Below the pieces are notes generated by a model, which made no database searches, was not told the origin of the DNA, and saw only the letters and a list, made by a program, of their open reading frames with translations. The translations under genes and the position numbers were made by a program. Of a DNA stretch of 64,000 bases, positions 6,111 through 34,237 are shown in pieces. The stretch's first letter is position 1. Each line of letters opens with the position of its first letter. This DNA comes from an uncultured bacterium (GTDB taxonomy: Bacteria; Zixibacteria; MSB-5A5; GN15; FEB-12), in the NCBI GenBank assembly GCA_965372795.1, contig CBDVDR010000010.1, positions 32,001-96,000 of the forward strand. Reading direction: 5' to 3'.

Positions 6111-7889
6111 ATGGGTATGAGCCTCTCAGCATGGATTCTAATAGGTGCCGTCATGGGACTTGCCTGTGGCTTGTTCTTTGGTGAGTATACCGCCCTGTTG
6201 TCAGTTGTTGGTGACGCCTGCGTGGGACTGCTTCAAATGACGGTGCTTCCCTATATCGCTATTGCTATCATCGCTAATATTGGAAAACTGTCGCCTAAAG
6301 TCGCTCTGCGATTTGTCCTCTATGTCTGTGGTTCCCTGTTAACCTCGGTCATCATAACGTTTGCAGTTGTTGTGTTCCTGCCCTTGTGCCTGCCGGATAA
6401 AGAAACAGCTTCTTTCTTCAGTTCAAGCACTCTCGCAGAATCAAGCCAGATTGACTTCCTCCAATTATTCATTCCCTCTAACCCTTTCTATTCATTGGCT
6501 AATAACATCGTACCCGCCGTGGTCCTGTTTTGTATTGCAATCGGGACTGCCATTATGACTATGGAAACCAAGAAACCTGCTCTGGAACAACTCGACTTTC
6601 TGTCAAAAGCTCTAGCTCGTATCAATCATTATCTCGTAAGATTAACTCCGATAGGCGTGTTTGCCTCCTGATTTGTTGACATTCCCATATCGATAAGTCA
6701 GTATCCTTCTTTTCTCGCCGCCGGAATGTTCAGCTTGTTCGGTAGTCCTCATGTCACCATACCTTTTCTACTGGATATGCTCCGACTTCCTGCTGACATG
6801 TTTCAACTGTATCTTGCCTCAGGCATTCTCGTAGATCGGATGGGAAATTTCCTGGGGGCGATCCATCTGCTGTTTGTAACGGTGCTGACGACCGCAGCCC
6901 TGTCTGGCAAACTGATTTTCCAATGGCGCAAGCTGATTTTCTCATTTGTTTTCATCATTGTATTTATAGCCGTAGCAACGATTTGTACAAAAGCATATTT
7001 GTCCGGCACACTTTCTGAGGAGTACAACAAGGATCAGACTGTTCGGAACATGCACTCGGCTATACATTCATCACAGGCTGTAATTCATCGATCTTTGCCT
7101 TCGGACTTTCCTGCTCTTGAGGTTTCAGCCATGCAACGCATATCAGAGAATGGCGTAATTCGCATTGGCTACAACCCGGACAATCTGCCAATGAGCTTCT
7201 TCAATGCATCTGACAAACTGGTCGGTTATGACATCGACATGGCTCACTTGTTGGCTCAACAGATGGCATGTCAGTTGGAATTTGTACCATTTGAGTTATC
7301 CACTCTTGTTGAACAACTAAACCGTGGGGATTTCGATATTGCAATGTCAGGTATTGTTATGCCACCGCCTCGTCTGACCCAAATAACCTTCTCTGAGCCT
7401 TACGGGCAGACAACCGCCGCCATAGTGATTCAGGATCATAGGCGCGATGAATTCATCCGGCGGCTATCAGAGGGAGACTTTCAGGGTATCCGACTTGCAC
7501 TCACAAACTCCAAAGATGCAGGCAGGATCGTAGCGAATCTCTTGCCCGGAGCAGTTTTCGTAGAGGTTTCTTCGCTCCGAGAATACTGTGAGTCCAGATA
7601 TAAAGAGGTTGATGGAATGATTTGGAGTGCAGAGAGCGGTTCTGCTTGGACACTGCTTTATCCGAATTTCAGTGTCGTACCGATACGCCCCCTTTACCGC
7701 GTACCAATCGGCTACGCAGTATCATACAATAACACCAGGTTAGCTGACTTCGTGAGCCAATGGATCAAAGTCGTTCAAGCCAGTCCGACTGATGAACTGC
7801 TATATGAACACTGGATTTTAGGGAAGAGTACGGAAGTGCATTTGCCTCGATGGAGCGTAATAAGGAACGTTCTGCACTGGGTAAAATAG
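6111..7889 (+). pseudogene. Disrupted dicarboxylate/amino acid:cation symporter fused to family-3 solute-binding domain
   Basis: ORFs 6111-6671 and 6726-7889 share one frame, split by TGA at 6669-6671. SDF motifs (LLQMTVLPYI, FIPSNPF, TPIGVFA) then SBP_bac_3 (GYDIDMA, GDFDIAMSG); central SDF helices appear missing. Confidence 0.75.
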
Positions 7890-14754: not shown

Positions 14755-17700
14755 TTATCTAAAAGAAATCTCTTGTAGAAATTTCTTAACTGTTTGAGTA
14801 TGTGGATGTTTCTCACCAAAAACACTGAGAAGAATATCATAAGCTCTTTTCCACAGTTCCCTCGCTTTTTCAAGTTGACCCAAAGCTTGATATAACAAAG
14901 CTAAATTGGACTGACGTATTGCGACAGCGGGATGTCTGTCACCGTAGTTTTTAATATCTGTCTGCAAAACTTGTTCTAACAACTCTCTTGCTTTTTCATA
15001 TTCACCCAAATCTTTATATACCAAAGCTAAATTGGACTGACTTGATGCCATAGAAGGATGTTTGTCACCGAAGTTTTCAAAACTTGTTTGCAGAGCTAAT
15101 TCTAACAACTCTCTTGCTTTTTCATATTCACCCAAATCTCTATATACCAGCGCTAAATTGGACTGACGTATCGCAACAGTAGGATGCTTGTCACCATAAT
15201 TTTCGATATCAAGATGTAAGGCTTGTTCTAAAAGATCCCTTGCTTTTTCTAAATGACACAATTCTTGATATATTAAAGCCAAATTGAATTTATCTATTGC
15301 TACAGAAGGATGTTTTTCACCGGATATTTCTATTCCTGTACGTAAAGCTTGTTCTAATAACTCTCTTGCTTTTTCAAATTCACCCAAATCCTTATATATC
15401 ATCGCTAAATTGGACTGACTTGTTGCTACAGAAGAATGTTTTTCACCGTGTTTTTCAATATTTGTTTGCAAAGCTTGTTCTAACAACTCTCTTGCTTTTT
15501 CAAATTGACCCAACTCTATATATACCATAGCTAAATTGGACTGTAGACTTGCTGTTATATCAGTATGGTCACCCCTGAGTTGCTTTAAAAGAGCCTCACC
15601 AAAAGGAATGAAACGAAATTTATCTATTGGATTATCATTTGATTGTTCATAACTAAGTAGTCCTGCAACACTTTTGGAAAGAAGCTTCAAATCATCTATT
15701 GTAATATCCAGCCTAAAAATAAGTGCCTCAACCAGCACCGGGTGCATTTTGTAACTGTCGGTTTTATTATCCTTTAATACAAAACCTTGATCGCAAACAT
15801 TCTCAAGCATCCCCCCGAATTCATCACTCCAGTCAAGCTTATTCTTATCTAATAACCTTGATAAGAATTCAAAATCTATCCATTGATTAGGCAGGGCACT
15901 GAACTGTTTTAACAGATAAACTTCCTGCTCGCTAAGCCCGCTAATATCAAAAATACTCGTTATATATGATTTGATGCGATCAATTTTAGCAATTTTATTA
16001 ACATTATGTTTTACTTTAATCCCCGCTTTGGCATCTTTCGTGAAGGCACTTCTAACTGTTTCATATTTCCAGTGATTTCTGTGTGCCGACTTTGCCAGTA
16101 TTTCAATGGTAAGTGTGTGAAGCTCCACTCCCTTAACAATAGACCGTATTTCTTTAGTAGAAAAACTACTATGATATTTGTTAAATAATTCTATTGCTTC
16201 ATCTTCAGGAAGAAAATCCAAATCTATTATTTTGAAATTCTCGATACGTTCCCGCGATGTTACCAGAAGGTGCCATTCTGGTGCTTTAGGCAGCATGTCA
16301 AAATGTTCTGCCAGACTTTCATGAGCGTTATCTATTATAAGGAGTTTAGGTTTTTTACTTTGTAAAGTACGCAATTTATTCAAGCAGCTAATTAACGGTT
16401 CGCTCAGTTCTTCCTCTGCTATTTTTAAATTCTTTATAAGTGATGTATTTGCAATTATTGCTTCTTCCAAACTGTTCTCTATTGTCAGCAATACTATATG
16501 GTCATATTCATCATAAAACTCTGTCAGGTAGACAGCCGCTAAAGTTGTTTTACCAATTCCACCCATCCCATTAATAAGAGCCGTATCGTGGTTTTGCATA
16601 AGTGATTCACGCAGATTTTGCAAATCTATTTCTCTGCCCACAATATCTTTTTTGGGAATGCGTACCAATGCCGTAAGTTCTTTGGGATAAGAATTATCTG
16701 ACCCTGCAATAGCATCATCTAATTTATCAATAATTATCTTCGTATCTTTTTTAATTTCTGAAGTATCTACTTTTATTGCTTTTGAAAGATTGAACAGATC
16801 AAAAACATTATCTGAAATTGTAAATATTTCTTCTTGATAGTTTTCCCCAAAAGCGAGTTTTTTTAGTTCCTCATCTGCTTCGATATTTTTTTCAAAAATG
16901 TTAAAAAAATCGTGAATCTGCTCTTTTTCAGGTACTTTGATTTTGTCGTTATTTTTTAATTCAGACAAAATTATTTCATTTGTTTTATAACCTGCTTTAC
17001 AGAAAAAACGATGTTTTAAAAGTTCTACCAAAAATATCTTTGACTGATAGAACAAGAGCTTATCATCGAAATCGGCCACGGGATTTGCTCTGCTGTATTC
17101 TTCTATTGTATTGTCAATAATCTCTGTAAATATTGACTGAAGTTTATATCTATTCTCTTTTGTTATCCAGCCTATGCCTTTTTTTATACCATATGAAACA
17201 AATGTATTTGCTCCATTTTCTGAAAGTGTCATATAATTAGAGGATCGCTTACTATGAACTTCAGTATAATTTTCTGGGAAAACTGATAATTTCTCTTTCT
17301 GATTAACATTTAAATACAATTCATTGTACATTATATTTTTTGATTGATCATTGGTTGCTTTTAGAATTGTTTTTTCAATACGAGACAAATCATCAATCAA
17401 ATCATATACTCTAACCATTTCATAAGATTTAGGACATTGTAATTCTTTATAATTTTCTCTAAATCTCATCAAATCATCATATTTATAAAAAGTTGGTGAT
17501 TTAGATTTCAAACATACAACACATTTACAAGGTAAAAGTTTATTATATTTCAATCTGGAATAACTGTTATGTATTTCATCTAAAATAAATATAACTTCTG
17601 TATATAATTCTTTCCTACCATGCCCAGACACTTTGATTGACAATTCTCCCTTGCCCTGTTCTTCTATGATCTCAGCCCTATTTCCTTCACTCTCTAAGAC

Positions 17701-20193
17701 TACTCCTTCTCGCCATACTAATGCTTGATTCACTATGTAGTTATGCATACTGATTATAAATTGAGTTATGATCCCTTTTGGCATAAACTCATAAGAATAT
17801 TTCAACTGTAAATTATCTTGATAATTCCAATTATAATCTGGTTGTTCCCTACTTAATAACTGAGGTACAATATATTTTTTATCAGAAGAAGGAATTTCAT
17901 AACACAACATAAAATTCTTCATCAATTGCAACAACTCAAGATATTTATTATGTAATTTAGGTTCACTCCAAATCTCTTTAAGTTCGGCAAATGCAAAGTG
18001 TCCTTTGTTTGCTAATAAATACTTATGATCAAGAACTTTATACATAGTATTAATACACCATATAGGATTTAAAATAACAAACTCACTTAATATAGAGTCT
18101 TCTTGAAAATGGATAATAACACCAAGATCTTGTAAAAATTGACTGAAAAAAAGTTGATCTCTCTTTCCAGTTAAACCATTTTTATCACAGATAGTTAAAA
18201 ATTCATCTAAACTGATATAATTTCTATTATCACTATTCAATATCTCACGTACATTTTTCCAAGTTTTAGGTATAATAATTCCAATATGAGGAAGTTTTTG
18301 AATATTAGACTTGATTGCATTTATGATTTCTGATAAACCACGATTATTTTCTAAATTTGTTGAAAATGAGTTTTTGAAATTAGTAAACTCTTTATGAAGT
18401 ACAGATTCGTTGATATCTACTTTTCTATCACTCTTTTCATTCTTGATGATTAAAATCGGACTATCCGCACTGAATAATTTAATAGTATTCAACCAATAAT
18501 TAAGATCATTATCCTCATTCCGGCTATCAATCACAAGAAGAAATAGTGATCGATTGGTTAGAAAAAGCTGGTGAGTTTCATGATAAATCGGTTGGCCACC
18601 AAAGTCCCAAATATTAACACGTAATATCTCACCATCATCACTTTTAATAATCCATTTTAAATTGTTGATTCCTTTAGTAGGACTTTGATCTTGTTGTAAT
18701 ATCCAATCAGTATTTTCAATTTTTTTAGCAAGCGATGTTTTACCTACCCCTGCTTCCCCTAAGATAAATAAATTTGCTTCGTTTATATAATCAGATCCTG
18801 TTTCATTAAGTTGACGATAATACTCTTGAAGTGATTCTATTCCTTTAGATGCCACTTCATAAGGAGGATCTACAAGTAGATTATTCACGCAGTTAAATAC
18901 ACACAATGAATGAAGATTCACTATTTGTTCAGATATCTTTTCAATCGCATTGTGACTAATATCTAATTCTTTCATATTTGTTAATAAAAACAATGAATCT
19001 GGTAAAGTTTTTATTTTATTATTTGAACAATTTAAAGAAATAAGAGATTCTAATTTTTGTATTAAGTCTGGTATTCTTGTAATCAAATTATTACTAATAT
19101 TTAATGATCTTAGGTTTTTTAGTTGAAATATTTCTTTAGTTAATTCTTCTATGTTTGCATTACTTATATCTAATTCTATTATATTATTATGATTATCTGT
19201 TCTACATTTAACAAATCCCTTTCCTAACTTCTCCTCTAACACTTCAATTATTGATAAATCTTCTCCTGGCTTGCTCAAATTACATTCTTCAAATATGTAT
19301 TTTGTAAGATTGACTAATTCCTTCCCAACCATTCTTTTAGGATCTTTTTGGGGTGGTATTTCTTCTCCAAAACCATATTCAGGTTTATATGGAATTGACT
19401 GACTAATAATATATGTTAAAGCATCATTTTGATTCTCAACAGGTAAATAATCAAATAATTTTTCAGAGGCGTTCTGTTGCCATTTGATCAACAAATTTCC
19501 TTCTGCAGCTTGTTCAACTCTTGAAGGAAGAACAATAAGCTGAGGTGGATTTTTTTCTACTCGATAATTAGGTGAAATCTCATTTATATTATGAGCAATA
19601 TTTTTAATACCTTCTATATTTTGTTCATTTAGTGCAAACAACATTACGACTGCATCAGGTATTTGAATTGTACATATTCCACCTATATCAGTTGTGCCTG
19701 TTCGGCTGTCTATGAGACAAATATAATATTTCTTCTTTATTTCATTTTTTAAATACTCAATAAAATTGAAACCTTGCCAATTTTCGTATAGATCCTGCCA
19801 ATCAAAATCATTAACTTTTGAAGCATAATCGCTGTCAAATCTTCCACTTGGAAGTAAAGATATACTGCCCCCACCTTTAAATTTTTCTATATTTGGGAGA
19901 ACATACTTATCTAAGTTGATTAATTCATCTTCTTTAATAGGTTCATCACTTGTAAGTAATTTTTTATACTCATAAAATAAATCAATTAAACCAAAATCAA
20001 TATTATCATTTTTGATATCAAAAAAACGATGAATCCCAGGTGCTTCAAGATCCCAATCAATAACAAGTACATTTAAATTATAATCTTTAGCAAGTACCCA
20101 AGCTACACTTGCAAGAGACATACTTCGCCCTACTCCACCTTTATATGAATAAAATGTAAATATTTTTGAACTTTGCATTTTTAAACTAACCAT
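14755..20193 (-). CDS. ParA/MinD-like (KGGVGR) ATPase - LRR - Roc-COR GTPase - STAND/NB-ARC ATPase - TPR fusion, 1812 aa
   Basis: YSYKGGVGRS/IDWDLEAPG/IDSRTG; about 5 LRRs; GEAGVGKT/WDFGGQ Roc; COR; GMGGIGKT/LLIIDN/LVTSRE/MHPVL NB-ARC; six 42-aa TPRs. Confidence 0.9.
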   Translation of the reverse strand: MVSLKMQSSKIFTFYSYKGGVGRSMSLASVAWVLAKDYNLNVLVIDWDLEAPGIHRFFDIKNDNIDFGLIDLFYEYKKLLTSDEPIKEDELINLDKYVLPNIEKFKGGGSISLLPSGRFDSDYASKVNDFDWQDLYENWQGFNFIEYLKNEIKKKYYICLIDSRTGTTDIGGICTIQIPDAVVMLFALNEQNIEGIKNIAHNINEISPNYRVEKNPPQLIVLPSRVEQAAEGNLLIKWQQNASEKLFDYLPVENQNDALTYIISQSIPYKPEYGFGEEIPPQKDPKRMVGKELVNLTKYIFEECNLSKPGEDLSIIEVLEEKLGKGFVKCRTDNHNNIIELDISNANIEELTKEIFQLKNLRSLNISNNLITRIPDLIQKLESLISLNCSNNKIKTLPDSLFLLTNMKELDISHNAIEKISEQIVNLHSLCVFNCVNNLLVDPPYEVASKGIESLQEYYRQLNETGSDYINEANLFILGEAGVGKTSLAKKIENTDWILQQDQSPTKGINNLKWIIKSDDGEILRVNIWDFGGQPIYHETHQLFLTNRSLFLLVIDSRNEDNDLNYWLNTIKLFSADSPILIIKNEKSDRKVDINESVLHKEFTNFKNSFSTNLENNRGLSEIINAIKSNIQKLPHIGIIIPKTWKNVREILNSDNRNYISLDEFLTICDKNGLTGKRDQLFFSQFLQDLGVIIHFQEDSILSEFVILNPIWCINTMYKVLDHKYLLANKGHFAFAELKEIWSEPKLHNKYLELLQLMKNFMLCYEIPSSDKKYIVPQLLSREQPDYNWNYQDNLQLKYSYEFMPKGIITQFIISMHNYIVNQALVWREGVVLESEGNRAEIIEEQGKGELSIKVSGHGRKELYTEVIFILDEIHNSYSRLKYNKLLPCKCVVCLKSKSPTFYKYDDLMRFRENYKELQCPKSYEMVRVYDLIDDLSRIEKTILKATNDQSKNIMYNELYLNVNQKEKLSVFPENYTEVHSKRSSNYMTLSENGANTFVSYGIKKGIGWITKENRYKLQSIFTEIIDNTIEEYSRANPVADFDDKLLFYQSKIFLVELLKHRFFCKAGYKTNEIILSELKNNDKIKVPEKEQIHDFFNIFEKNIEADEELKKLAFGENYQEEIFTISDNVFDLFNLSKAIKVDTSEIKKDTKIIIDKLDDAIAGSDNSYPKELTALVRIPKKDIVGREIDLQNLRESLMQNHDTALINGMGGIGKTTLAAVYLTEFYDEYDHIVLLTIENSLEEAIIANTSLIKNLKIAEEELSEPLISCLNKLRTLQSKKPKLLIIDNAHESLAEHFDMLPKAPEWHLLVTSRERIENFKIIDLDFLPEDEAIELFNKYHSSFSTKEIRSIVKGVELHTLTIEILAKSAHRNHWKYETVRSAFTKDAKAGIKVKHNVNKIAKIDRIKSYITSIFDISGLSEQEVYLLKQFSALPNQWIDFEFLSRLLDKNKLDWSDEFGGMLENVCDQGFVLKDNKTDSYKMHPVLVEALIFRLDITIDDLKLLSKSVAGLLSYEQSNDNPIDKFRFIPFGEALLKQLRGDHTDITASLQSNLAMVYIELGQFEKARELLEQALQTNIEKHGEKHSSVATSQSNLAMIYKDLGEFEKARELLEQALRTGIEISGEKHPSVAIDKFNLALIYQELCHLEKARDLLEQALHLDIENYGDKHPTVAIRQSNLALVYRDLGEYEKARELLELALQTSFENFGDKHPSMASSQSNLALVYKDLGEYEKARELLEQVLQTDIKNYGDRHPAVAIRQSNLALLYQALGQLEKARELWKRAYDILLSVFGEKHPHTQTVKKFLQEISFR
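14790..15550 (-). repeat. 126-bp tandem TPR-coding repeats (6 units)
   Basis: CTAAATTGGACTG-type anchor recurs at about 14901, 15027, 15153, 15279, 15405, 15531. Confidence 0.9.
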
Positions 20194-20204
20194 AATTTCA
20201 TATC

Positions 20205-20870
20205 CTACCCAGGAGGACGAAGATTTTTGCTTTTAATCTCATTATGATTAAAGTATTTATCAGAAGTTTCCAACATTCTCACATTAGTAGGAGCATCTTT
20301 TCTATCCTTTAGATATTTATCTAATAGTGATAGCTCCATGAAGTTATGAAGATCATCCTCTCTTGTAACAATTCTACATTTCAACCCATTGAAATATTTT
20401 TTGGGAATTGATTCTAATTGTTGAGTATACAATTCATATAATGCTCCTTGAATGCCTGTAGGTTTTTTAGAACAGAATAAAAAACAAGAACAATGAGATT
20501 CAGAATCACAACAAGTATCAATAGTAGGTATTAGCTTTGAATACTTTTCATGAAGTAGAGCAAAATTATCAATTATATATAAGGATGCTCTTTCTAAAAA
20601 AGAAACACGATTACGATCATCATCAAAATCAACATCTTCATTTGCGCATATAAATTTATTTTCTTTTGATTTTAATATTTCTATTATAGATTTGTCAGAA
20701 AAAGGTTTCCAATCTTCTGATACATTTCCATAAAGAGTGTCCTTATTTCGATCAAGCCATATAGCTATTGACGATTTCCCCTTCCCCTTTAGTATTTCAC
20801 ACACTTCTGCAACTTCACTATGCCTAAGTGCAACAATAATGTAATTTAATGTCTTTTCAGTATTTTCCAT
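20205..20870 (-). CDS. Hypothetical protein resembling the FxsC C-terminal domain
   Basis: LYGNVSEDWKPF and YIIDNFALLHEKY recall FxsC motifs (from memory); directly upstream of the KGGVGR protein. Confidence 0.5.
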   Translation of the reverse strand: MENTEKTLNYIIVALRHSEVAEVCEILKGKGKSSIAIWLDRNKDTLYGNVSEDWKPFSDKSIIEILKSKENKFICANEDVDFDDDRNRVSFLERASLYIIDNFALLHEKYSKLIPTIDTCCDSESHCSCFLFCSKKPTGIQGALYELYTQQLESIPKKYFNGLKCRIVTREDDLHNFMELSLLDKYLKDRKDAPTNVRMLETSDKYFNHNEIKSKNLRPPG

Positions 20871-21702
20871 TACAAAGTCTATTTATAGATTCTAATTTTC
20901 CGATTACATCTTCTTGAGATCTCCTAAATTGATTATCTTCACTTAATTTTTTTATAGGGTAAAAATAGAAGCGCCATTTAATTTCAATATCATCGACACT
21001 ATCATAATTGAGAATCTTTTTAAAAATTTCAATCAAACCATTTAAATCTTCAAGTAATTTTGCAATATCATAATATAGTATTTTACTGTAATTATTTAAA
21101 TCTTCATTTTGTATATTTTCTATCGTCTTTAATGCTACTGAGTAAATCCCTGATAATTCATCTTTGTTAAATACATTATTAATGTTTGATTTTTTTATCT
21201 TTATAAGAAGGTGATTAACTTGCCTTGTAATTTGTAAAAAACTTGATGCGGGAAATGCAGGCAAACTATCTCTATATTTAATCAAAAAACTCAGAAATAA
21301 AGTAGATGGAATTAACAGTATAATTAAAATCTTAAATAATAATTCTGCCACTACTTCTAATAAACCTTGAAAAGATGTTAAACCAAAGATGTAGATATCT
21401 TCTTGAATACCTATATATCCACACATCAATAAATTTATAGTTAAAATAATAAACAACATTAACAAAGGTCTCATTATTTGACCTCTGAATGCAAAATAGC
21501 AATCCCTTTGAAAATGATTTATCAAAATATAGACAGTAAATAAAAAAATTATTGTAAAAGGAAGACTTAATGCAGGATTTAGATTGAATATCTCAATTTT
21601 TGAAATACCATAATAACTCATCATCACTGTTACAAGGCTAATTAAATATAGTCCCCACAACCGAAATCCTAAGTAGTAATCTAACGTAAGAAGTTTACCC
21701 AA
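20857..21702 (-). CDS. Membrane protein (about 4 N-terminal TM helices + helical soluble domain)
   Basis: Hydrophobic segments in first 140 aa; overlaps next ORF; TTG start uncertain. Confidence 0.7.
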   Translation of the reverse strand: MGKLLTLDYYLGFRLWGLYLISLVTVMMSYYGISKIEIFNLNPALSLPFTIIFLFTVYILINHFQRDCYFAFRGQIMRPLLMLFIILTINLLMCGYIGIQEDIYIFGLTSFQGLLEVVAELLFKILIILLIPSTLFLSFLIKYRDSLPAFPASSFLQITRQVNHLLIKIKKSNINNVFNKDELSGIYSVALKTIENIQNEDLNNYSKILYYDIAKLLEDLNGLIEIFKKILNYDSVDDIEIKWRFYFYPIKKLSEDNQFRRSQEDVIGKLESINRLCNGKY

Positions 21703-21915: not shown

Positions 21916-24318
21916 TCATATCACTGCCCTACTCTCATATAAAGATGCTTGGAAGCCTATGAATGTATCCCGAATTGAACTAATATCACCCAATTCTCGT
22001 TTCGCATCAGGAATCGCTTTGTATTTTAGAATCAATAGATCAGGAAGTTTCTTTACATCAAGCTCACTTACGCCAGATTCCACATACTGCTTTAAAACAA
22101 AATCCAAAAATATTCGCTGTTTGGATTCATAACCATCATAATGTGACTTTGCAAATTCCGCTCTTTGACTTCGTTTTACAGGATTGGTACTAAATGCCAC
22201 AAAAGACAACACATCATACAAATCACTATCTTCCGCATGAATCATTTGTTGTAAATCTTGTAATTGGTTTGGAGTAAAGCCATGCTCATTCAATTCTTGT
22301 AAGAGTTGTTTTCGAGTATCTGGGTTGCTCCAAATAGCACGTAATTCATCTTCATCCTTGAAAAAATCAGGCAAGGCATCAAACATTGACTTTAAAAATT
22401 CTTCTGCTGAGATAGGTTTCCCATCAGGACTCCAAAAAGATGTCTGCACCATAAAATCTAATTCACGTACTTTATTATCTGATAATTTAACTTTTATCAT
22501 CTTTCGAGGTGGCTGTTTATCACATTCACAAGGTGCTTTTCCGCAAAACTCACATCGTTCAGGTGGGTCAGTATCGCACACACAAGGTCTCTCACCACAT
22601 GTTTGGCATACTTTTGGAGGTTCGTCTACACAAATACATACAACCTTTCCGCATTTTTCACAGGGTAAAGCATCGCCATCCCATTCAGGATCAAAAAAAT
22701 GATAATGCGCTCCGACAAAATCATATATTGTAAAATAATCCTTACCCTCAAATAAGCGGGTTCCACGACCAATAATCTGCTTGAACTCGATCATCGAATT
22801 TACTTTACGCATGAGAATAATATTTTTAAGCTCAGGAGCATCTACACCGGTACTTAATTTCTGTGACGTTGTTAGAATCGTAGGGATGATTTTCTCGTTA
22901 TCCTGAAAATCCCGTAAATGCTGTTCACCCCGCTTGGCATCATCAGCTGTAACTCTATGGCAATAGTTAGGATTGGTGCTGACAGACTGTTGGTTGATCA
23001 AATTTCGAACCCCAAGAGCATGTAGCTGGGTGTCACAAAACACAATCGTCTTTTGGTTTTGATTCATCATTTCCAAAAACAGTTTTACCCTATACTTTTC
23101 CCGTTCCATTATTTCAATCACACGATTCATTTCATTCTCGGTGTAAATCTTTTCCTTATCAATCTTACCCTCTAATATTATATCATCAGAAGTATAGATA
23201 TAATCATCAACTGTCGTACGTATCTGCTTCACTCTAAATGGTGTCAGAAAACCGTCATTGATTCCTTCTTTGAGAGAATAAATATAGACAGGTTCACCGA
23301 AATACTTATAAGTATCAATATTCTTATCCCGCTTTGGAGTTGCCGTAAGACCTAACTGCACTGCGGGACTAAAATATTCCATAATCGCTCGCCAGGTGCT
23401 TTCATCATTGGCACCACCACGATGACACTCATCTATAACGATAAAATCAAAATAATCTTTTGGGTATTCTCCAAAGTATGGTTCGCCATTATCACCGCTC
23501 ATAAAGGTTTGGAAGATTGTAAAGAAAATAGAACCGTTGGTAGGCACTTTCCCTTTTTTACGAATATCGTCTGGGCGGATTCGCACCAAAGCATCTTCTT
23601 CAAAGGAAGAGAAAGCATTAAAAGCCTGGTCTGCTAAAATATTTCTATCTGCTAAAAACAATATACGAGGAAGCCGCTTACCATCTCTTCGTAAATTCCA
23701 TCTACTATGGAATAATTTCCAGGCAATCTGAAAAGCAATTGCGGTTTTTCCTGTTCCGGTAGCAAGAGTAAGCAGTATACGATTTTCACCTTTAGCAATA
23801 GCTTCCAATGCTTTTGTAATGGCATTTTCCTGATAGTAGCGAGGTTGCCAGGTGCCACCCCGATCTTCAAAGGGAACCGTATGTAATTTATCCCGCCATT
23901 CTCCTGCTTCTTTATTGATGCTATCTTCTTCGGCAAAGGTCATCGCCCACAATTCATCTGGTGATGGAAATTTATCTACATCCGCTTCTTTACCTTCCAG
24001 CATATCGATACCATAAATCTTCAACCCGTTACTGCTGTAAGTATAGCGTACCTGTAACCTGCCAGCATAATCTTTGGCTTGCCCAACCCCTTCGGTATAA
24101 GGTTTTTCATCAGACTTAGCTTCAATAACTGCAAGATTACGGTTTTTATATTGTAAGACATAGTCGGCAAAGTCAGGTTTACTTCGTTTCCCGTTTCCGA
24201 TTAAACGACCCTTTGAGATAGGGAACTCCATGCGGATACGAGATCCATCCACAACACCCCATCCTGCTTGTTTTAAGGCTGGGTCAATATAGGTTGCTTT
24301 AGTTTCCGCTTCGTTCAT
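21916..24318 (-). CDS. hsdR: Type I restriction enzyme R subunit (EcoAI/EcoEI-like)
   Basis: ADYVL..VIEAK nuclease motif, ATGTGKT, DECHRG, LTATP, QIIGRGTR, EcoEI-type C-terminus. Confidence 0.95.
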   Translation of the reverse strand: MNEAETKATYIDPALKQAGWGVVDGSRIRMEFPISKGRLIGNGKRSKPDFADYVLQYKNRNLAVIEAKSDEKPYTEGVGQAKDYAGRLQVRYTYSSNGLKIYGIDMLEGKEADVDKFPSPDELWAMTFAEEDSINKEAGEWRDKLHTVPFEDRGGTWQPRYYQENAITKALEAIAKGENRILLTLATGTGKTAIAFQIAWKLFHSRWNLRRDGKRLPRILFLADRNILADQAFNAFSSFEEDALVRIRPDDIRKKGKVPTNGSIFFTIFQTFMSGDNGEPYFGEYPKDYFDFIVIDECHRGGANDESTWRAIMEYFSPAVQLGLTATPKRDKNIDTYKYFGEPVYIYSLKEGINDGFLTPFRVKQIRTTVDDYIYTSDDIILEGKIDKEKIYTENEMNRVIEIMEREKYRVKLFLEMMNQNQKTIVFCDTQLHALGVRNLINQQSVSTNPNYCHRVTADDAKRGEQHLRDFQDNEKIIPTILTTSQKLSTGVDAPELKNIILMRKVNSMIEFKQIIGRGTRLFEGKDYFTIYDFVGAHYHFFDPEWDGDALPCEKCGKVVCICVDEPPKVCQTCGERPCVCDTDPPERCEFCGKAPCECDKQPPRKMIKVKLSDNKVRELDFMVQTSFWSPDGKPISAEEFLKSMFDALPDFFKDEDELRAIWSNPDTRKQLLQELNEHGFTPNQLQDLQQMIHAEDSDLYDVLSFVAFSTNPVKRSQRAEFAKSHYDGYESKQRIFLDFVLKQYVESGVSELDVKKLPDLLILKYKAIPDAKRELGDISSIRDTFIGFQASLYESRAVI

Positions 24319-24319
24319 G

Positions 24320-25213
24320 TTAAAATAAATCCATTAGTTCTTTTGCGGATATTAATTTCTCATAAGTAGTATATTTTATGCTTTGCATCAATCCTTTTGG
24401 TGCTTTGCTATATTCTAATGGTCCAATTGGTTTTGCTGGAGCCACAAAATTCAATCGATATTTCCCCCCATCACCATAAGGCTCAATCGATTCGACTTCA
24501 GCAAAATGAGTAACTGCAGATATTGGTGCGGTCTGATATACCGCTATATACTTAATTTCACCAAGTCTACCACCACCAATTCTAATTGCGTACCAACAGT
24601 GTTCCCTAAGAAATACTTCTTTGAATCCATCTTCTTGAGCGGGTACTACAATTGTATCCTGAATACTTTTTTCTTCAATCGGCAGATTAGGTACCACATC
24701 TATTTTCGTGGCTTTTTCAAATACTCTTATTTCAACCAATGGTAATATACTCAAAATTTCATTTAGAAATTCTTGTGTATCAGCCTTTTCAGACTCAGTA
24801 AGAATTGGTTCATTTGGTGTAGTTGAGTTGTTTAATTTACATCGACTTGCATTTTTTGCTTGTTGAATAAGTGCCCATTCAAGCCAAGTAATGTGCGCTC
24901 GGTTTAGACCACCATTGCTTGAAACGAATACCAGAACTTTGTTCCAAAATTTCTTATTCTTACTGTGATCTTCTATTCGTTTCTTAATTCCATCACCTTG
25001 CCCCACATAAATAGTTGGGAAGTCATCCTCTTCCTCATAGCCAGCTAAGATATAGATACCCGCTTCATCAAGCTCTTTTCTATTCTTATATTTATCCCAT
25101 GCTGCACGAGATATTTCCAGACCGATACCTGTCCAGTTCATCTTGGTAATCATCTTGAAATCTTGCGGGTCTCCATCGGGTACAAATAAACGAATAGTAT
25201 AAGGTTTAGCCAT
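24320..25213 (-). CDS. GIY-YIG nuclease-family protein (DUF4357-like N-terminus) with C-terminal beta domain
   Basis: AGIYIL...IYVGQG..RI..H, WLEWALI; probable start MAKPYTIRLF at 25213. Confidence 0.8.
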   Translation of the reverse strand: MAKPYTIRLFVPDGDPQDFKMITKMNWTGIGLEISRAAWDKYKNRKELDEAGIYILAGYEEEDDFPTIYVGQGDGIKKRIEDHSKNKKFWNKVLVFVSSNGGLNRAHITWLEWALIQQAKNASRCKLNNSTTPNEPILTESEKADTQEFLNEILSILPLVEIRVFEKATKIDVVPNLPIEEKSIQDTIVVPAQEDGFKEVFLREHCWYAIRIGGGRLGEIKYIAVYQTAPISAVTHFAEVESIEPYGDGGKYRLNFVAPAKPIGPLEYSKAPKGLMQSIKYTTYEKLISAKELMDLF

Positions 25214-25268
25214 GCGTCTTAATCCTTTCTTGTTTCCTAAGAGCCAATTGCTCTGGTTCCCGCATCGT

Positions 25269-25793
25269 TCATTTCGGCAATTTCCGATCGCCATTCACAC
25301 AGAGTATGGGGTTATGAGTTGTCAGTCTGAAATCTTTCCAGCGTATCTTTTTTGGTATTGGTAGTTCTATATTTAGATATTTCTCGTATGTGTTTCTCGC
25401 ACGAAGAAAAATCCATTCCGATTCAGCCAATTCGATTCCCATTGTTCTAACTTTGTCTCTTAACTTGGGAATGTGGGTTATCAAATACTGTTCGTTTGCC
25501 TGGTTATTTCTAATCCGTTTTGGTTCATCCAATATATCTATTAGGAAAATACCCTGCTGTTTTAGTTCAACCAAGAACTTGTCATACTCCTCTATTGATT
25601 CCGGTCGCTTGTCAAAATAGTGATTAAATATAGTAGAAGGTAAGCTCGTGTCATCTTCAATTTTCTTACCAATAGCAAGCTTTTGTGGAACATAAAAGAA
25701 TGTTCTCCCACTTGATGGCGGAGCTTCACCGATCAACAGAGTTTTAATCACTTCTGGTCTGTATTTATTCCTCTCTCGTTCGTAATCAATCAT
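25269..25793 (-). CDS. Hypothetical protein, uracil-DNA glycosylase-superfamily-like
   Basis: LLIGEAPP..G..FFY and IFLID resemble UDG-fold motifs. Confidence 0.5.
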   Translation of the reverse strand: MIDYERERNKYRPEVIKTLLIGEAPPSSGRTFFYVPQKLAIGKKIEDDTSLPSTIFNHYFDKRPESIEEYDKFLVELKQQGIFLIDILDEPKRIRNNQANEQYLITHIPKLRDKVRTMGIELAESEWIFLRARNTYEKYLNIELPIPKKIRWKDFRLTTHNPILCVNGDRKLPK

Positions 25794-25820: not shown

Positions 25821-26981
25821 TCATGCTACTGCTCCTTCTGCTGTGGTCAGTTCGCCGTTGAATGCTTTTTGCAGGATAGATTTTTTCAAATCGTCTAATG
25901 AATCTAATTCTTTTTCGTATTGAGATTCAAGGACTTCGGTTTGTTTTTTTAAAATTTCAAGTTTTTCAATAATTTTTAATTGTGCATTCACTTTAGGAAA
26001 TGAGATAAAATAATTTTCAATAAACTCTTTTGATACACGTTTATGACCAACAGCACCGGTCATTACCATTTTTCCTTCTACTCTAAACTGATCTCTCGAA
26101 AGAAAGTAAAAAAGAAAATCAGACTTAATATCACCTAATGATCGAAAGACGATATATTCACTTGAACCAAATCCAATCCCATTTACTAAGTTACGTGCCA
26201 CACCAAGTTTTCCATTTTCAAAACAAGGCGTTATTTTTGCCATTAAAACATCATCATCTGCAAAATACGTATAACTTCCTGCAACTTCATTTAATTTTTT
26301 TTGCTGAGCAATAGGGATGTCTTTTTGTAATACCTTTAAATCAGTCATTGGTAGAAATGTCACCATATCTGATTGATTTAGTTTATCTTTTGCTTCTTTT
26401 TTCGGTGGTTTAATGAGAAACACTTCCCCTAACTTCTTTTCCACCCAACCGTCACCTTTTTGGGTGAAGATTTGGTTCAGTTCGCTTTGGAAGAGGTCTT
26501 TAGTGTTTTGCAGGTTGCGTTCTACATTGGCTTTGGCTTTGTCGATTGCTTCAAAGCATCTGTCCAATATGGCAACAATGCGTTTCTGTTCAGGAAGAAG
26601 TGGGATTAAAGTTTCAATTGCATAAACATCATTCCTGTTAATTCCCGGTTTTACACCTTTGGCAAGAGCTGGAAGTTCAAGTAAAGACAGCAGGTGATAC
26701 AAGAAATTAAGATTCAGTTCAGTTTTGTCAAACTTGACAAAGTAGGTAACATCAAGCGGCCAGAACTTTTCTTCTGTATAGTTGATTTCACCTGCTGATC
26801 CTTTTCTTCCAACAATAATGCTTGGTTCATCTGAATAATACTCGTTGGTTCTATCCTTAACACCATTCGCACCATAGACTGGATACAATCCTTCCGATGT
26901 TCGTTTATCTTTTGAAAGAGGCTTCCCATACTCTAACGAGAGGATATCTCCAATCTTTTTGCTTTCCCAACTCTGTTTCAT
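25821..26981 (-). CDS. hsdS: Type I R-M specificity subunit
   Basis: Two TRDs, PEQKRIVAILD and LKKSILQKAFNGEL conserved helices. Confidence 0.95.
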   Translation of the reverse strand: MKQSWESKKIGDILSLEYGKPLSKDKRTSEGLYPVYGANGVKDRTNEYYSDEPSIIVGRKGSAGEINYTEEKFWPLDVTYFVKFDKTELNLNFLYHLLSLLELPALAKGVKPGINRNDVYAIETLIPLLPEQKRIVAILDRCFEAIDKAKANVERNLQNTKDLFQSELNQIFTQKGDGWVEKKLGEVFLIKPPKKEAKDKLNQSDMVTFLPMTDLKVLQKDIPIAQQKKLNEVAGSYTYFADDDVLMAKITPCFENGKLGVARNLVNGIGFGSSEYIVFRSLGDIKSDFLFYFLSRDQFRVEGKMVMTGAVGHKRVSKEFIENYFISFPKVNAQLKIIEKLEILKKQTEVLESQYEKELDSLDDLKKSILQKAFNGELTTAEGAVA

Positions 26982-28435
26982 AGCAACTCTTTAATACTTT
27001 CTAAAATCTCTTTGGTCTCGTTGTCCAGCGTTGCCATCTCAGTCAATATTTCCTTTGGACTTCGTAATGGTGCCTCTTCTGGTGTATTTGGGTTTTTCAC
27101 ACTTAGATCATAGGTTTCAGTGTTGATATTGGCAATATTCACGCTCCAACATCTTTCATTCTCCGGTTTACTCTTTTGCAGTTTTACAAACTCTGCCATA
27201 TCATTATCATTGAGCGGATTGGTCTTGCCCATATTGCGACCCGGATCAAGCTGGTAGTACCAAATCTTCTTGGTCGGTTCACCTTTGTTAAAAAACAGTA
27301 CTACCGTTTTCACACCTGCCCCTAAAAACGTCCCACCTGGCATATCTAAAATTGTATGCAGGTTACAGTTTTCCAGTAGATGTTTCCTCAGAGAGATAGA
27401 GGCATTGTCGGTATTGCTCAAGAATGTATTTTTGATAACTATCCCGGCACGACCGCCGGCTTTGAGGGTTTTGATAAAGTGCTGCAAAAACAGAAAAGCG
27501 GTCTCACTGGTTTTAATATTAAAATTCTGCTGAACTTCTTTGTGCTCTTTAGCACCAAAGGGTGGGTTTGCCATTATCACTTTGTATCTATCTTTTTCCT
27601 GAATATCCCGAATGTTCTCACTTAGAGTATTTGTGTGGCTAATATTGGGGGCCTCTATGCCATGAAGAATCATATTCATAATACCGATGATATACGCCAG
27701 ATTTTTCTTTTCCTTACCGTAGAAGGTTTTTTCCTGAAGAGTTTTTAAATCGGTAGTGGATAATGAATCTCTGTCCTTTGTCATATGAGCGAAGGCTTCA
27801 CACAGGAAGCCTGCTGAACCCACCGCACCATCATAGATGGTTTCCCCTATCTGTGGGTTTACAACCTCAATGATAGCCCTAATAAGTGGTCTGGGAGTGT
27901 AATACTGCCCGCCGTTACGCCCGGCATTACCCATATTCTTAATTTTACTCTCATAGAGATGCGAAAGCTCGTGCTTGTCTTTAGTCGTTCGAAATTGTAT
28001 TTCATCGATATGATCTATGATTTCACGGAGATTATAACCGCTTTGTATTTTGTTTTTGAGTTCAGAGAATATTTCACCAATTTTATATTCGATAGTTTTT
28101 GAATTGTCAGCCTTTTCTTTGAATTTTGAGAGATATGGGAAAAGTTTGCCGTTGACAAACTGAACCAAATCGGGACCACTCATAGCTTTGTGATGATCGA
28201 GTTTACCATCGGATGTTTTTGGCATCGCCCAGTTTGCCCAGCGGTATTCTTCATCTAATATGAAAGTGTATTTTTTACCCTTAAGTTCGGCTGAATCTTT
28301 CTTATCGAGTTCCAGATCATCCAGATACCGCAAAAACAAAATCCATGAGGTTTGCCCGATATAGTCTAACTCACTATCGGCACCAGCGTCTTTATAAAGG
28401 ACATCATCAATATTTTTAAAAGTCTGTTCAAACAT
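26978..28435 (-). CDS. hsdM: Type I R-M N6-adenine methyltransferase
   Basis: GQYYTPR, DGAVGSAGFL, ANPPF; ATG 28435 with AGGAG RBS; overlaps hsdS start. Confidence 0.95.
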   Translation of the reverse strand: MFEQTFKNIDDVLYKDAGADSELDYIGQTSWILFLRYLDDLELDKKDSAELKGKKYTFILDEEYRWANWAMPKTSDGKLDHHKAMSGPDLVQFVNGKLFPYLSKFKEKADNSKTIEYKIGEIFSELKNKIQSGYNLREIIDHIDEIQFRTTKDKHELSHLYESKIKNMGNAGRNGGQYYTPRPLIRAIIEVVNPQIGETIYDGAVGSAGFLCEAFAHMTKDRDSLSTTDLKTLQEKTFYGKEKKNLAYIIGIMNMILHGIEAPNISHTNTLSENIRDIQEKDRYKVIMANPPFGAKEHKEVQQNFNIKTSETAFLFLQHFIKTLKAGGRAGIVIKNTFLSNTDNASISLRKHLLENCNLHTILDMPGGTFLGAGVKTVVLFFNKGEPTKKIWYYQLDPGRNMGKTNPLNDNDMAEFVKLQKSKPENERCWSVNIANINTETYDLSVKNPNTPEEAPLRSPKEILTEMATLDNETKEILESIKELL

Positions 28436-28682
28436 TCGATGCAACTCCTAATAGCTTATGATATGATTACTGTCTGAATTATTTCACCCACAGCGTTCAA
28501 TTGTTTACATTTAATTAGATTTCGAGCCTTTCAAAGACCTTTCCCCTAAGTTGTTGTTACGTTTCAAATAATATGATAAATATATCATTGTATGTCAAAT
28601 GAATAAGAATACGATTGATTTTGAAGATTTACATGCCTATTTTTAAAATATTAAGTAAATAGATAAATTAACGGAGGATTTA

Positions 28683-29144
28683 GTGGGCTTGATTGATTCA
28701 AAGAAATTTGGTCTAAATCCAATAATTGATTCAAATACTAAAGTAATGATTTTGGGATCGTTACCTGGAGATGAATCTATTAGATTACAAGAATACTATG
28801 CTAACAATAATAATGACTTCTGGAAGTTAACCAGTCATGCTATTAGTGAAGATATTACTAAATTTAGCTATAAAGAAAAAATACAAAAACTATTAAAAAA
28901 CAATATTGGTTTGTGGGATGTTTTTAAATTAGCTAATCGACCAGGAAGCTTGGATTCAGATATAAATTATGAAGAAATTAACGATTTCAAATGGCTTAAG
29001 AATAATTATCCTAAAATTAAATTAATTTCCTTTAATGGCAAAAAAGCCGGAAAATATACGAGAGCTTTAAATGATATTGGCTATGAAACAATAGTCATCC
29101 CATCTTCAAGTTGTGCAAAAATAAAAATAAAAAATCGTGCATAA
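28683..29144 (+). CDS. DNA-deoxyinosine (hypoxanthine) glycosylase, UDG superfamily; possibly truncated at C-terminus
   Basis: ILGSLPG..S...YY...NDFW, GLWDV, FNGKKA, PSSS motifs. Confidence 0.85.
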   Translation: MGLIDSKKFGLNPIIDSNTKVMILGSLPGDESIRLQEYYANNNNDFWKLTSHAISEDITKFSYKEKIQKLLKNNIGLWDVFKLANRPGSLDSDINYEEINDFKWLKNNYPKIKLISFNGKKAGKYTRALNDIGYETIVIPSSSCAKIKIKNRA

Positions 29145-30892: not shown

Positions 30893-31415
30893 TCTTCGAT
30901 TGATAAAAAAAAGACATTCCTACTCAACGTCTGAATTATCCAAAAAAATAAGTGTACACCCTCGAACAATTCAAGAATGGCGCAAACAAGGGATGAAACC
31001 AATTGAGATAAATAATAGAAATTTTTTATTTATGGGATATGATATAGTTAGATTCATTTCAGAAAAGCAGCAGAAGAGGAAGCAAAAATTAGAAGTAAAC
31101 GAATTTTTCTGCCCAAAATGTAAATCACCTCAAACTTCTACTTTAAATAATATAACTATATTAGTAACTAATAAAAAAATTGGAAAAGATAATCTCTCCA
31201 TCCACATAAAAGGTGTTTGCACAAAGTGCAGATGCATACTCACTCGTTTTTCTTCTAAAACAATGCTCAAAAACTCCTATTGGGGGCTGAAGTTAAAAGA
31301 AGGTCATGTAAGATTAAAGGGTTATCCACCATCTGCTTTAAACACTGACATCAAGCAGGAGATTTTAGACTCTTTAAAACTTATAAAAGAAACTGAGGGA
31401 AATAATGAAAACTAA
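30870..31415 (+). CDS. HTH DNA-binding (excisionase-like) protein with zinc ribbon
   Basis: YSTSELSKKISVHPRTIQEWRKQG; CPKC...CTKC. Confidence 0.75.
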   Translation: MKKKRTYDLRLIKKRHSYSTSELSKKISVHPRTIQEWRKQGMKPIEINNRNFLFMGYDIVRFISEKQQKRKQKLEVNEFFCPKCKSPQTSTLNNITILVTNKKIGKDNLSIHIKGVCTKCRCILTRFSSKTMLKNSYWGLKLKEGHVRLKGYPPSALNTDIKQEILDSLKLIKETEGNNEN

Positions 31416-32530: not shown

Positions 32531-32719
32531 ATGGATAATTTGTTAGAAAAACTTGAAGAATACCGGCTCGAACATCGCATTACTCAAAAGCAATTAGCTG
32601 AACTTCTTGGAGTTGCCTTTGTTACAGTAAGTCGTTGGCTGAATGGGCATACGAAACCGAATAAGATTCAAACATTTCACATTAAAAAGCTTTTATCTAA
32701 AAAGGTAAAAAAACGATGA
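32531..32719 (+). CDS. XRE/Cro-family HTH regulator
   Basis: ITQKQLAELLGVAFVTVSRWLNG; ATGA-coupled to recombinase. Confidence 0.92.
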   Translation: MDNLLEKLEEYRLEHRITQKQLAELLGVAFVTVSRWLNGHTKPNKIQTFHIKKLLSKKVKKR

Positions 32720-34164: not shown

Positions 34165-34237
34165 GATTCGAACCCACGGTACCTTGCGGCACAACGGTTT
34201 TCAAGACCGCCGCTTTCGACCACTCAGCCACTCCTCC
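34153..34237 (-). tRNA. tRNA-Ser(TGA)
   Basis: Minus strand GGAGGAGTGGCTGAGTGGTCGAAAGCGGCGGTCTTGAAAACCGTTGTGCCGCAAGGTACCGTGGGTTCGAATCCTACCTCCTCCG; long variable arm; CCA not encoded. Confidence 0.97.

Follow-up and report, generated by a model that had tools for sequence, protein, structure and literature searches.

A four-TM, FxsC-C-like and ParA gene cassette with a predicted conflict role, and its ParA-Roco-STAND fusion protein in a Zixibacteria genome

The available text of Kaur et al. (2020; PMC7159879) describes 'inactive' MinD/ParA-like domains that take the effector position, and also reports their fusion with AP-ATPases encoded beside peptide-processing systems. In the main text of a recent computational study (Li, Burroughs & Aravind, bioRxiv 10.64898/2026.10.19.760177, 22 Oct 2026; hereafter Li et al.), a ConB2 clade of ParA domains is characterized by an arginine in place of the Walker A lysine and by PG after sensor-1. 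In the TIR-ParA apoptosis systems of that study, an active TIR (FxsC) is encoded upstream and in many cases carries a fused FxsC-C, which is regarded as an inactive TIR; the ParA is joined to a STAND NTPase, a ligand-binding domain or a receptor-like tail, a two-step cascade is proposed for the ParA-STAND fusions, and rare variants swap the TIR for EADs, DrHyd, trypsin or caspase. In the PCTM systems, ParA has a C-terminal transmembrane (TM) domain, and the effector encoded upstream is of the SLATT, 2TM, caspase or CPPC-4h type. Here we compare with these systems a three-gene locus, encoding the proteins P0003, P0002 and P0001, in a 64,000-nt stretch of the genome of an uncultured bacterium of the Zixibacteria (assembly GCA_965372795.1, contig CBDVDR010000010.1, positions 32,001 to 96,000; this whole stretch is hereafter called the window).

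The three genes are co-directional (Table 1). The P0003 and P0002 genes overlap by 14 nt and the P0002 and P0001 genes are 11 nt apart, exactly the tight coupling given in the original prediction, which took the locus for a strong candidate for an undescribed defence or signalling system consisting of a membrane protein, an FxsC-like protein and a triple-NTPase chain. We found that the locus belongs to a conserved gene cassette and that its last protein carries a singular tail. 'Undescribed' turned out to be too strong a word, as an Arg-P-loop ParA on a STAND protein together with an upstream FxsC appears in the available text of Kaur et al. (2020; PMC7159879) and in the main text of Li et al. 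(bioRxiv 10.64898/2026.10.19.760177).

A conserved cassette with a variable ParA tail

A four-TM (4TM) protein, an FxsC-C-like protein and a KGGVGR ParA make up a conserved cassette. The neighbourhood comparison proposed in the original prediction recovered the triad in a Bacteroidota genome (G239), in a metagenome-assembled genome contig of the Anaerolineales (Chloroflexota; L015) and in 11 metagenome contigs. In genome G239 (locus L014), three genes with overlapping ends encode, in the cassette order, 4TM (283 aa), P0002-like (225 aa) and KGGVGR (809 aa) proteins; the first 335 residues of the 809-aa protein correspond to the ParA domain of P0001 and its tail is made of a TM helix and an Lcl_C domain. 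The same three genes follow in the same order in L015, where the ParA has a TPR tail. The ParA domain of P0001 is 44% identical to that of the G239 cassette and 51% identical to that of L015.

For the metagenome search, 17 rows of the P0002 family alignment served as the query; this returned 17 loci, which were then scanned with profiles. A KGGVGR gene directly follows the P0002-like gene in all 14 loci that have DNA at this place (three contigs stop there), and a P0003-family gene directly precedes it in 11 of the 13 loci with room for one, the other four having less than 240 nt upstream, too short to judge. Two of the 285 phylum-sample genomes matched the P0002 profile, G239 and that of the window, and there was no match in the 107 other genomes of the window's own taxonomic family.

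The ParA tails vary by locus and include a single TM segment with an outside region, a multi-TM region, TPRs, HSP20, Lcl_C and a P-loop domain; L095, L097, L100, L105, L107, L109 and L014 each have a TM segment after the ParA domain. Ninety ParA domains were placed in a quick maximum-likelihood tree, which left out L015 and loci with less than 200 residues of the domain; all 10 rows of the '4TM + FxsC-C-only' type group with L107 (SH-aLRT 96), and the window's domain branches first within this cassette group. Because the ParA domain of P0001 groups with the cassette ParAs, the simplest reading of its giant tail is that it was added secondarily to an ordinary member of the cassette.

A scan of genomes with the ParA domain gave at least 597 relatives, of which the best 80 loci, mostly from Actinomycetota, were taken. 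Among the 77 open reading frames (ORFs) scanned directly upstream of the ParA gene in these best 80 loci (three loci gave none), 54 contain FxsC_Cterm with the TIR-like FxsC_Nterm, three FxsC_Cterm only and seven a TIR-like domain only, so that FxsC_Cterm is present in 57 and a TIR-like domain in 61; two ORFs code for HTH proteins, one for another FxsT-like protein and 10 had no match, some of the latter probably reflecting a wrong choice of ORF in high-GC DNA.

P0002 had no match in Pfam, NCBIfam (E <= 0.01) or PADLOC, no PADLOC model matched its family, a word-index search returned only the window's own protein, and its best score in the protein atlas (0.85) was under the recognition level. 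An HMMER scan of 1.84 billion representatives yielded, with P0002 counted, 59 proteins at E <= 1e-3, and almost all of these are 200-225 aa long; Y47, W54, P56 and D101 are invariant across the family (alignment A1, 50 rows). The description 'FxsC-like' holds for one half of FxsC only. The FxsC_Cterm model TIGR04276 (cut-off 55) is matched by 17 of the 50 family members, not by P0002 itself, and hhalign aligned A1 with an alignment of 18 FxsC C-terminal domains (A7) over 116 columns with 95.1% probability (E 3.1e-8), pairing the motifs YG...DW.P[FY] and hhhhD.[FW]. The TIR-like N-terminal half of FxsC (NF040588) was not found in P0002.

The AF2 model of P0002 (pLDDT 86.3) is a five-stranded alpha/beta sandwich that resembles GTPase, REC, TIR, SEFIR and generic flavodoxin-like domains about equally (Z 7.4-9.2, none standing out), and Foldseek found nothing in the Protein Data Bank (PDB) at E <= 1e-3. 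The modelled fold is compatible with the view of Li et al. that FxsC-C is an inactive TIR. Co-folding of P0002 with the ParA domain scored 0.51 (0.50-0.52 in three runs), against 0.00 for the best of three controls, with at least 84% of contacts shared between runs and a partner pLDDT of at least 68; at scores not above 0.60, as here, the mark was attained by 18 of 157 solved structures of true partners, as opposed to 2 of 215 mismatches. The models lend weak support to a pairing of P0002 with the ParA domain.

The predicted membrane partner was borne out as well: P0003 shows 3-4 hydrophobic helices by hydropathy, and its AF2 model (13-row alignment; pLDDT 74.8) has four TM helices and, after them, a helical bundle on the cytoplasmic side. 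P0003 had no match in Pfam, NCBIfam or PADLOC, its family had none in PADLOC, Foldseek against the PDB gave nothing at E <= 1e-3, a word-index search found the window's own P0003 only, and no CP-PC motif is seen in the family alignment. Syntenic homologues were detected in L014 (26% identity, E 2e-7), L015 (24%, E 1e-9) and the 11 metagenome loci. P0003 is a candidate effector or anchor. The original prediction had expected that PADLOC would give no hit, and for P0002 and P0003 this was so; the ParA domain of P0001, however, matches PDC-M28B, the model of a PADLOC candidate system.

Anatomy and origin of the P0001 chain

P0001 consists of an Arg-P-loop ParA-like domain, an LRR-Roc-COR module and a complete NB-ARC-TPR STAND protein, in that order (Table 1). 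Family models (Pfam, NCBIfam) and sequence motifs agree with the predicted chain of three different P-loop NTPases that also carries LRRs, a Cys cluster and TPRs. NF047398 (KGGVGR AAA domain) matches aa 10-203 with 155.4 bits (cut-off 90). The Walker A motif of this domain is YKGGVGRS (aa 17-24), with Arg replacing the second Lys, the PG after sensor-1 is part of DWDLEAPG (aa 46-53), and the Walker B motif is LIDSRTG; alignments A2 and A6 show no variation in KGGxGR or at D46, W47, D48, P52 and G53.

The LRRs (LRR_8, aa 340-440 by Pfam) are followed by Roc (aa 475-586, 86.2 bits), COR-A (642-780, 136.9 bits) and COR-B (793-935, 120.5 bits), each above its cut-off, so that all three domains by which a Roco protein is recognized are present; the Roc G1 motif is GEAGVGKT (aa 479-486) and G3 is DFGGQ. 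A CxCxxC...C cluster (C889, C891, C894 and C920) lies at the end of COR-B; the same motif was found in three bacterial Roco relatives (P0007, P0022 and P0073) and could bind a metal in Roco proteins of this clade.

In the STAND part, NB-ARC (aa 1190-1349) scores 46.6 bits (cut-off 23.5) and TPR_12 180.3 bits, TPR_10 is also matched, and the NB-ARC Walker A and B motifs are GMGGIGKT (aa 1209-1216) and LLIIDNA, the combination expected of a STAND-TPR protein. The FxsT-type TPR model NF040586 gives P0001 227.6 bits, under its 300-bit equivalog cut-off. No family matched the helical domain (aa 988-1180), and a protein-atlas search with aa 985-1185 gave no usable match. Hydropathy indicates no TM helix after the ParA domain or elsewhere in P0001.

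The frame of P0001 has only its terminal stop, whereas 85-249 stops interrupt each of the five alternative frames of this DNA (30.9% GC) and the longest stop-free run in 200 shuffles was 116 codons; a frame of 1812 open codons is thus not due to chance. The public gene call for P0001 (P0004) is 1788 aa long, 24 residues less than the ORF (window 20122-20193); judging from the lengths alone, it would begin at Met25, just past the KGGVGRS P-loop. The longer start is likely because the residues ahead of Met25 are conserved in homologues. Promoter and terminator scans, with a consensus that is not that of Bacteroidota, found sites that were fewer than, or no more than, those in shuffles.

In a search of 5.8 billion protein clusters with words taken from all along P0001 (8000 candidates scored), only P0001 itself spans the full chain, and the next-best candidate covers 45% of it. 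The pairwise combinations do occur elsewhere: ParA-like with LRR-Roc-COR, and also TIR, in a 1278-aa protein (P0022), ParA-like with NB-ARC and TPR in P0025, and Roco with NB-ARC, with or without TPR, in P0007 and P0073. Matches to P0001 aa 1-940 at E <= 1e-20 were found in 23 of the 285 phylum genomes, but the ParA and Roco parts are matched through one frame in a single genome, the window's own, and the others match one part only. Stand-alone Roco relatives are present in the phylum sample (best identity to the P0001 Roco module, 47%), and the window's own genome also encodes one (945 aa, 36% identity).

The same genome also has an 864-aa STAND paralogue, which aligns from its residue 19 with P0001 aa 988-1812 at 68% identity; it adjoins sodA and has no cassette partners there. 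Homology to P0006, an unrelated relative, starts at the same point (aa 995). The stretch between the end of COR-B (aa 935) and the start of the paralogue alignment (aa 988) is thus a joint of 52 residues without homology to either Roco-type or STAND-type relatives. Since the 68%-identical paralogue resides in the same genome, the host's own STAND gene may have been captured onto an imported cassette. Between the STAND part and the paralogue, dN is 0.15 and dS 0.44, and the resulting dN/dS of about 0.35 indicates selection on the STAND part. In a near-identical tract of about 100 codons (approximately aa 1180-1285), dS is only 0.12, while the remaining 100-codon windows range from 0.37 to 0.81, a pattern suggestive of gene conversion between the paralogues.

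Some of these features would also fit an accidental origin, in which the 1812-aa chain is a recent read-through fusion of adjacent ParA-Roco and STAND paralogue genes, or an assembly artefact, and has no function as a single protein. The fused portion is a whole stand-alone protein, the joint has no homology on either side, the near-identical tract bespeaks recombination with the paralogue, and the fusion is a singleton lineage. However, a second public assembly (731,993-nt contig) encodes an 1812-aa protein with 1810 of the 1812 residues identical to P0001 and a P0002 with 220 of 221 identical residues. As both assemblies retain the frame, the open 1812 codons have been seen twice, in slightly different sequence. 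Because the joint (aa 936-987) lies outside the homology with the paralogue, a misassembly driven by this repeat would not create it; the dN/dS value speaks for selection on the STAND part and each of the pairwise fusions is known elsewhere. We regard an accidental fusion as the least likely of the explanations considered here.

Genomic setting of the cassette

The cassette stretch has 28-35% GC, compared with about 40% elsewhere in the window. As predicted, it adjoins a type I restriction-modification (R-M) system, with hsdR directly upstream and hsdS and hsdM farther on (Table 1). Between hsdR and hsdS lies a 324-aa homologue of PDC-S14 (PADLOC, 188.4 bits), which by its sequence and place looks like a defence candidate inside the R-M operon; a 174-aa ORF that overlaps it had no family match. 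A gene for a DNA-deoxyinosine glycosylase (TIGR04274, 157.9 bits, cut-off 80) lies past the R-M operon and ahead of the integrase block, where a tyrosine integrase gene lies just upstream of that for a serine recombinase. The 3' ends of the serine recombinase ORF and of tRNA-Ser(tga) overlap by 13 nt. The 'integrated island' of the original prediction is in keeping with the foreign GC content, the two recombinases and the nearby tRNA-Ser, but the ends of an island were not found: no repeat of the tRNA-Ser region of at least 13 nt was found elsewhere that could serve as an att site, save one 13-mer in P0003 that we took as chance.

On the other side of the cassette, a sodium:dicarboxylate symporter gene looks split, the first ORF (186 aa) covering only positions 1-187 of the 387-position SDF model and the next, of 387 aa, having an SBP_bac_3 domain; it may be a frameshifted or rearranged gene. 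The STAND paralogue also has an SDF-transporter neighbour, and a segmental duplication linking it to the SDF fragments of the window (6.1-7.9 kb) was considered and rejected, their identity being only 20%.

Table 1. Positions of the cassette genes, the parts of their products and other features mentioned in the text (positions are those of the window unless another contig is named)
Feature	Position (nt)	Strand	Description
P0003	20857-21702	minus	281 aa, TTG start
P0003, predicted features		minus	TM helices aa 13-30, 43-68, 77-100, 111-142; bundle aa 153-277 (AF2 model)
P0002	20205-20870	minus	221 aa
P0001	14755-20193	minus	1812 aa
P0001, ParA/MinD-like domain	19279-20193	minus	aa 1-305; KGGVGR 'ConB2' clade
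P0001, Roco module	17389-19188	minus	aa 336-935; LRR (336-445), Roc (470-630), COR-A/COR-B (642-935)
P0001, Cys cluster	17434-17529		end of COR-B
P0001, Roco/STAND fusion joint	17233-17388	minus	aa 936-987
P0001, complete STAND protein	14755-17232	minus	aa 988-1812; helical domain (988-1180), NB-ARC (1190-1350 and beyond), ~6 TPRs (1540-1805)
Split SDF symporter	6111-7889	plus	186-aa ORF, then 387-aa ORF
hsdR	21916-24318		type I R-M, directly upstream of the cassette
PDC-S14 homologue	24320-25294	minus	324 aa, between hsdR and hsdS
ORF overlapping the PDC-S14 homologue	25269-25793	minus	174 aa
hsdS	25821-26981		type I R-M
hsdM	26978-28444		type I R-M
DNA-deoxyinosine glycosylase	28683-29144	plus	
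Tyrosine integrase	31405-32493		just upstream of the serine recombinase
Serine recombinase	32716-34164	plus	
tRNA-Ser(tga)	34152-34237	minus	
STAND paralogue	contig C4, locus L009, 8493-11087	minus	stand-alone; helical domain, NB-ARC, TPR
Second KGGVGR set	contig C7, locus L011, 7108-10117	plus	ThsB-like TIR, 158 aa; TIR_2 protein, 214 aa; KGGVGR ParA with pentapeptide repeats, 619 aa

A second KGGVGR set, of the canonical TIR-ParA type, is encoded on contig C7 of the same genome. Its TIR_2 gene overlaps the next gene by 4 nt, and the set lies beside a serine recombinase gene, an HTH/M78 pair and a Rep-like gene. Two ORFs of this contig were tried as paralogues of the cassette proteins and rejected: the 281-aa ORF with a TTG start is a Rep-like protein (E 0.88 against P0003), and the 214-aa ORF is the TIR protein (E 5.4 against P0002).

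The cassette might also be taken for a non-immune positioning or signalling module of the ParA type, which would localize a membrane complex (e.g. in the cell envelope or in development) under regulatory input from the Roco and STAND parts. The classical roles of ParA and MinD are in positioning, as the main text of Li et al. (bioRxiv 10.64898/2026.10.19.760177) recounts; bacterial Roco proteins are not known to have a proven immune role; and the immune role of every cassette member is a prediction. Against such a module stand the sporadic distribution (2 of 285 phylum genomes), the foreign composition and the hypervariable tail, the R-M, PDC-S14 and recombinase neighbours, and sister systems with NADase-type TIR genes. 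Features of this kind mark conflict systems and not housekeeping ones, and we consider a non-immune role improbable. On architecture and neighbourhood, the cassette is most likely an abortive-infection or conflict system, and the candidate status given to the locus at the outset is upheld by this context, at the level of a prediction.

Proposed mechanism and comparison with known systems

The explanation that we favour, with moderate confidence, is that the three genes are a member of the cassette, a membrane-protein form of the TIR-ParA conflict systems, and that they work as follows. The variable ParA tail would sense the invader; as the tail of the window's protein comprises LRR-Roc-COR and a whole NB-ARC-TPR STAND protein, the LRRs, the TPRs or both would bind the trigger. 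The NB-ARC ATPase, the Roc GTPase and lastly the ParA domain would then act as NTP-dependent switches in series that set a high threshold for firing, an arrangement of serial checkpoints that would extend the two-step cascade of Li et al. The ParA domain would act on the 4TM protein through P0002 as an inactive-TIR-like adaptor, and the 4TM protein, whose gene holds the position of the NADase TIR gene in canonical systems, would damage or depolarize the membrane and so abort the infection. This division into a sensing tail and constant output parts (4TM, FxsC-C-like, ParA) follows the logic of conflict systems, since only the tail is variable, and membrane damage by P0003 is the simplest output because the cassette has no recognizable killing enzyme and the 4TM gene takes the TIR position.

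We put forward more tentatively a specific version of this scheme, according to which the triad is a distinct and as yet undescribed membrane-acting abortive-infection system in which a nucleotide-bound ParA dimer, via the inactive-TIR-like adaptor, would open or assemble a 4TM pore, and P0001 would be a natural immune receptor with three checkpoints, STAND, Roco and ParA firing in series before the cell is killed.

Several points weigh against the proposed scheme. The case for an immune role, of the cassette and of the wider TIR-ParA class, is drawn entirely from architecture and neighbourhood. None of P0001, P0002 and P0003 contains a recognizable killing enzyme, P0003 has no known fold, and its effector role is argued solely from gene position and TM helices. 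Two of the 13 metagenome loci with upstream room (L107 and L111) have no P0003-like gene, and the P0002 family is present in the metagenome loci by construction, because it was used to collect them. The ParA 'switch' may only bind nucleotide, as its P-loop Lys is an Arg and such domains are called inactive in the available text of Kaur et al. (2020; PMC7159879). The ParA tree was built quickly and rooted at its midpoint, and its AT-rich rows, including that of the window, were flagged for odd amino-acid composition. Finally, only one lineage is known to have the triple fusion, which could be a recent, little-tested accident.

A competing view accepts the family and its immune role but makes the 4TM protein an anchor or co-sensor, the killing or blocking output being a large multimer of ParA, STAND or FxsC-C parts, or an unrecognized activity of the helical domain (aa 988-1180). 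In most cassette relatives (L095, L097, L100, L107 and L014) ParA itself is membrane-anchored and has an outside domain, and the membrane may for this reason be the site of sensing. The main text of Li et al. (bioRxiv 10.64898/2026.10.19.760177) proposes ParA as a 'multimerizing effector' and inactive TIRs as multimerizers, and the helical domain, conserved in P0006 and the paralogue, sits in the effector position of a STAND protein. On the other hand, the P0003 gene holds the exact position of the canonical NADase TIR gene and has been kept although P0001 lacks TM helices, and the helical domain offers no lead from families or the atlas. We consider the anchor role unlikely, and retain membrane damage by the 4TM protein as the favoured output.

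As ParA-centred systems of immune type are so far only predicted, the cassette, with three compact genes and a non-enzymatic membrane partner, is a simple test case; the questions it poses are whether it protects and whether an Arg-P-loop ParA is a true switch. P0001 joins a SIMIBI-type ParA, a Ras-like Roc and an AAA+-like STAND NTPase with two kinds of repeat sensors and amounts to a natural experiment on the chaining of switches and the threshold of activation, a question that also arises for the NLRs of animals and plants and for LRRK2, itself a Roco protein.

Bacterial Roco proteins, such as that of Chlorobium tepidum cited in the available text of Kaur et al. (2020), and NLR-like NB-ARC-TPR proteins resemble P0001 in that each of its modules is complete and typical. 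Both have stand-alone relatives in the same genome, whereas the window joins the two as tails of a ParA-like protein. None of the curated models of anti-phage STAND proteins (Avs and others) matched, and the sole PADLOC matches were PDC-M28B, a weak mad8, PDC-M29B and PtuA. The PDC-M28B match covers aa 7-242 with 93.2 bits and is partial (profile positions 126-355 of 438); no PDC-M28 model matched P0002 or P0003, and a term search of the literature found nothing on PDC-M28.

The FxSxx-COOH systems (FxsC/FxsT; NF040588, TIGR04276, NF040586) share with the window an FxsC-type gene directly upstream of a gene for KGGVGR-ParA, NB-ARC and TPR, as seen in most of the best 80 loci. The window differs in that P0002 lacks FxsC_Nterm and misses TIGR04276 when taken alone, P0001 is under the FxsT cut-off, and neither a radical-SAM match, as expected for FxsB, nor a gene for an FxsA-type peptide was seen among 19 nearby ORFs (3.3-39.5 kb; small peptide genes were not searched for). 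Compared with the PCTM systems of the main text of Li et al., the likeness lies in the ConB2 ParA, the upstream membrane or helical protein and the several cassette relatives that have ParA followed by TM and an outside domain. In contrast to these systems, P0001 has no TM helix, an additional FxsC-C-like gene separates that for the membrane protein from that for ParA, and the P0003 family has no CP-PC.

The closest described counterparts are the TIR-ParA (ConB2) systems, which, as presented in the main text of Li et al., agree with the window in the Arg for the Walker A Lys, the PG after sensor-1, an FxsC-C domain in the partner upstream of ParA, the grafting of ParA onto STAND and a strongly conserved gene order. 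The window departs from them in having no TIR with an NADase site (Pfam, NCBIfam and PADLOC detect no TIR domain in P0002 or P0003), with a 4TM gene in place of the TIR gene, FxsC-C as a separate small protein, and a tail made of a Roco module and a whole STAND protein. In the main text of Li et al. (bioRxiv 10.64898/2026.10.19.760177), the terms 'Roco' and 'LRR' are absent and AP-GTPase appears as an analogy only; the cassette form with a 4TM gene, the ParA-Roco fusion and the three-NTPase chain are not seen there or in the available text of Kaur et al. (2020). The class itself has thus been described recently, by computation, and what the window adds to it is the 4TM/FxsC-C-only form of the cassette and the unique ParA-Roco-STAND chain.

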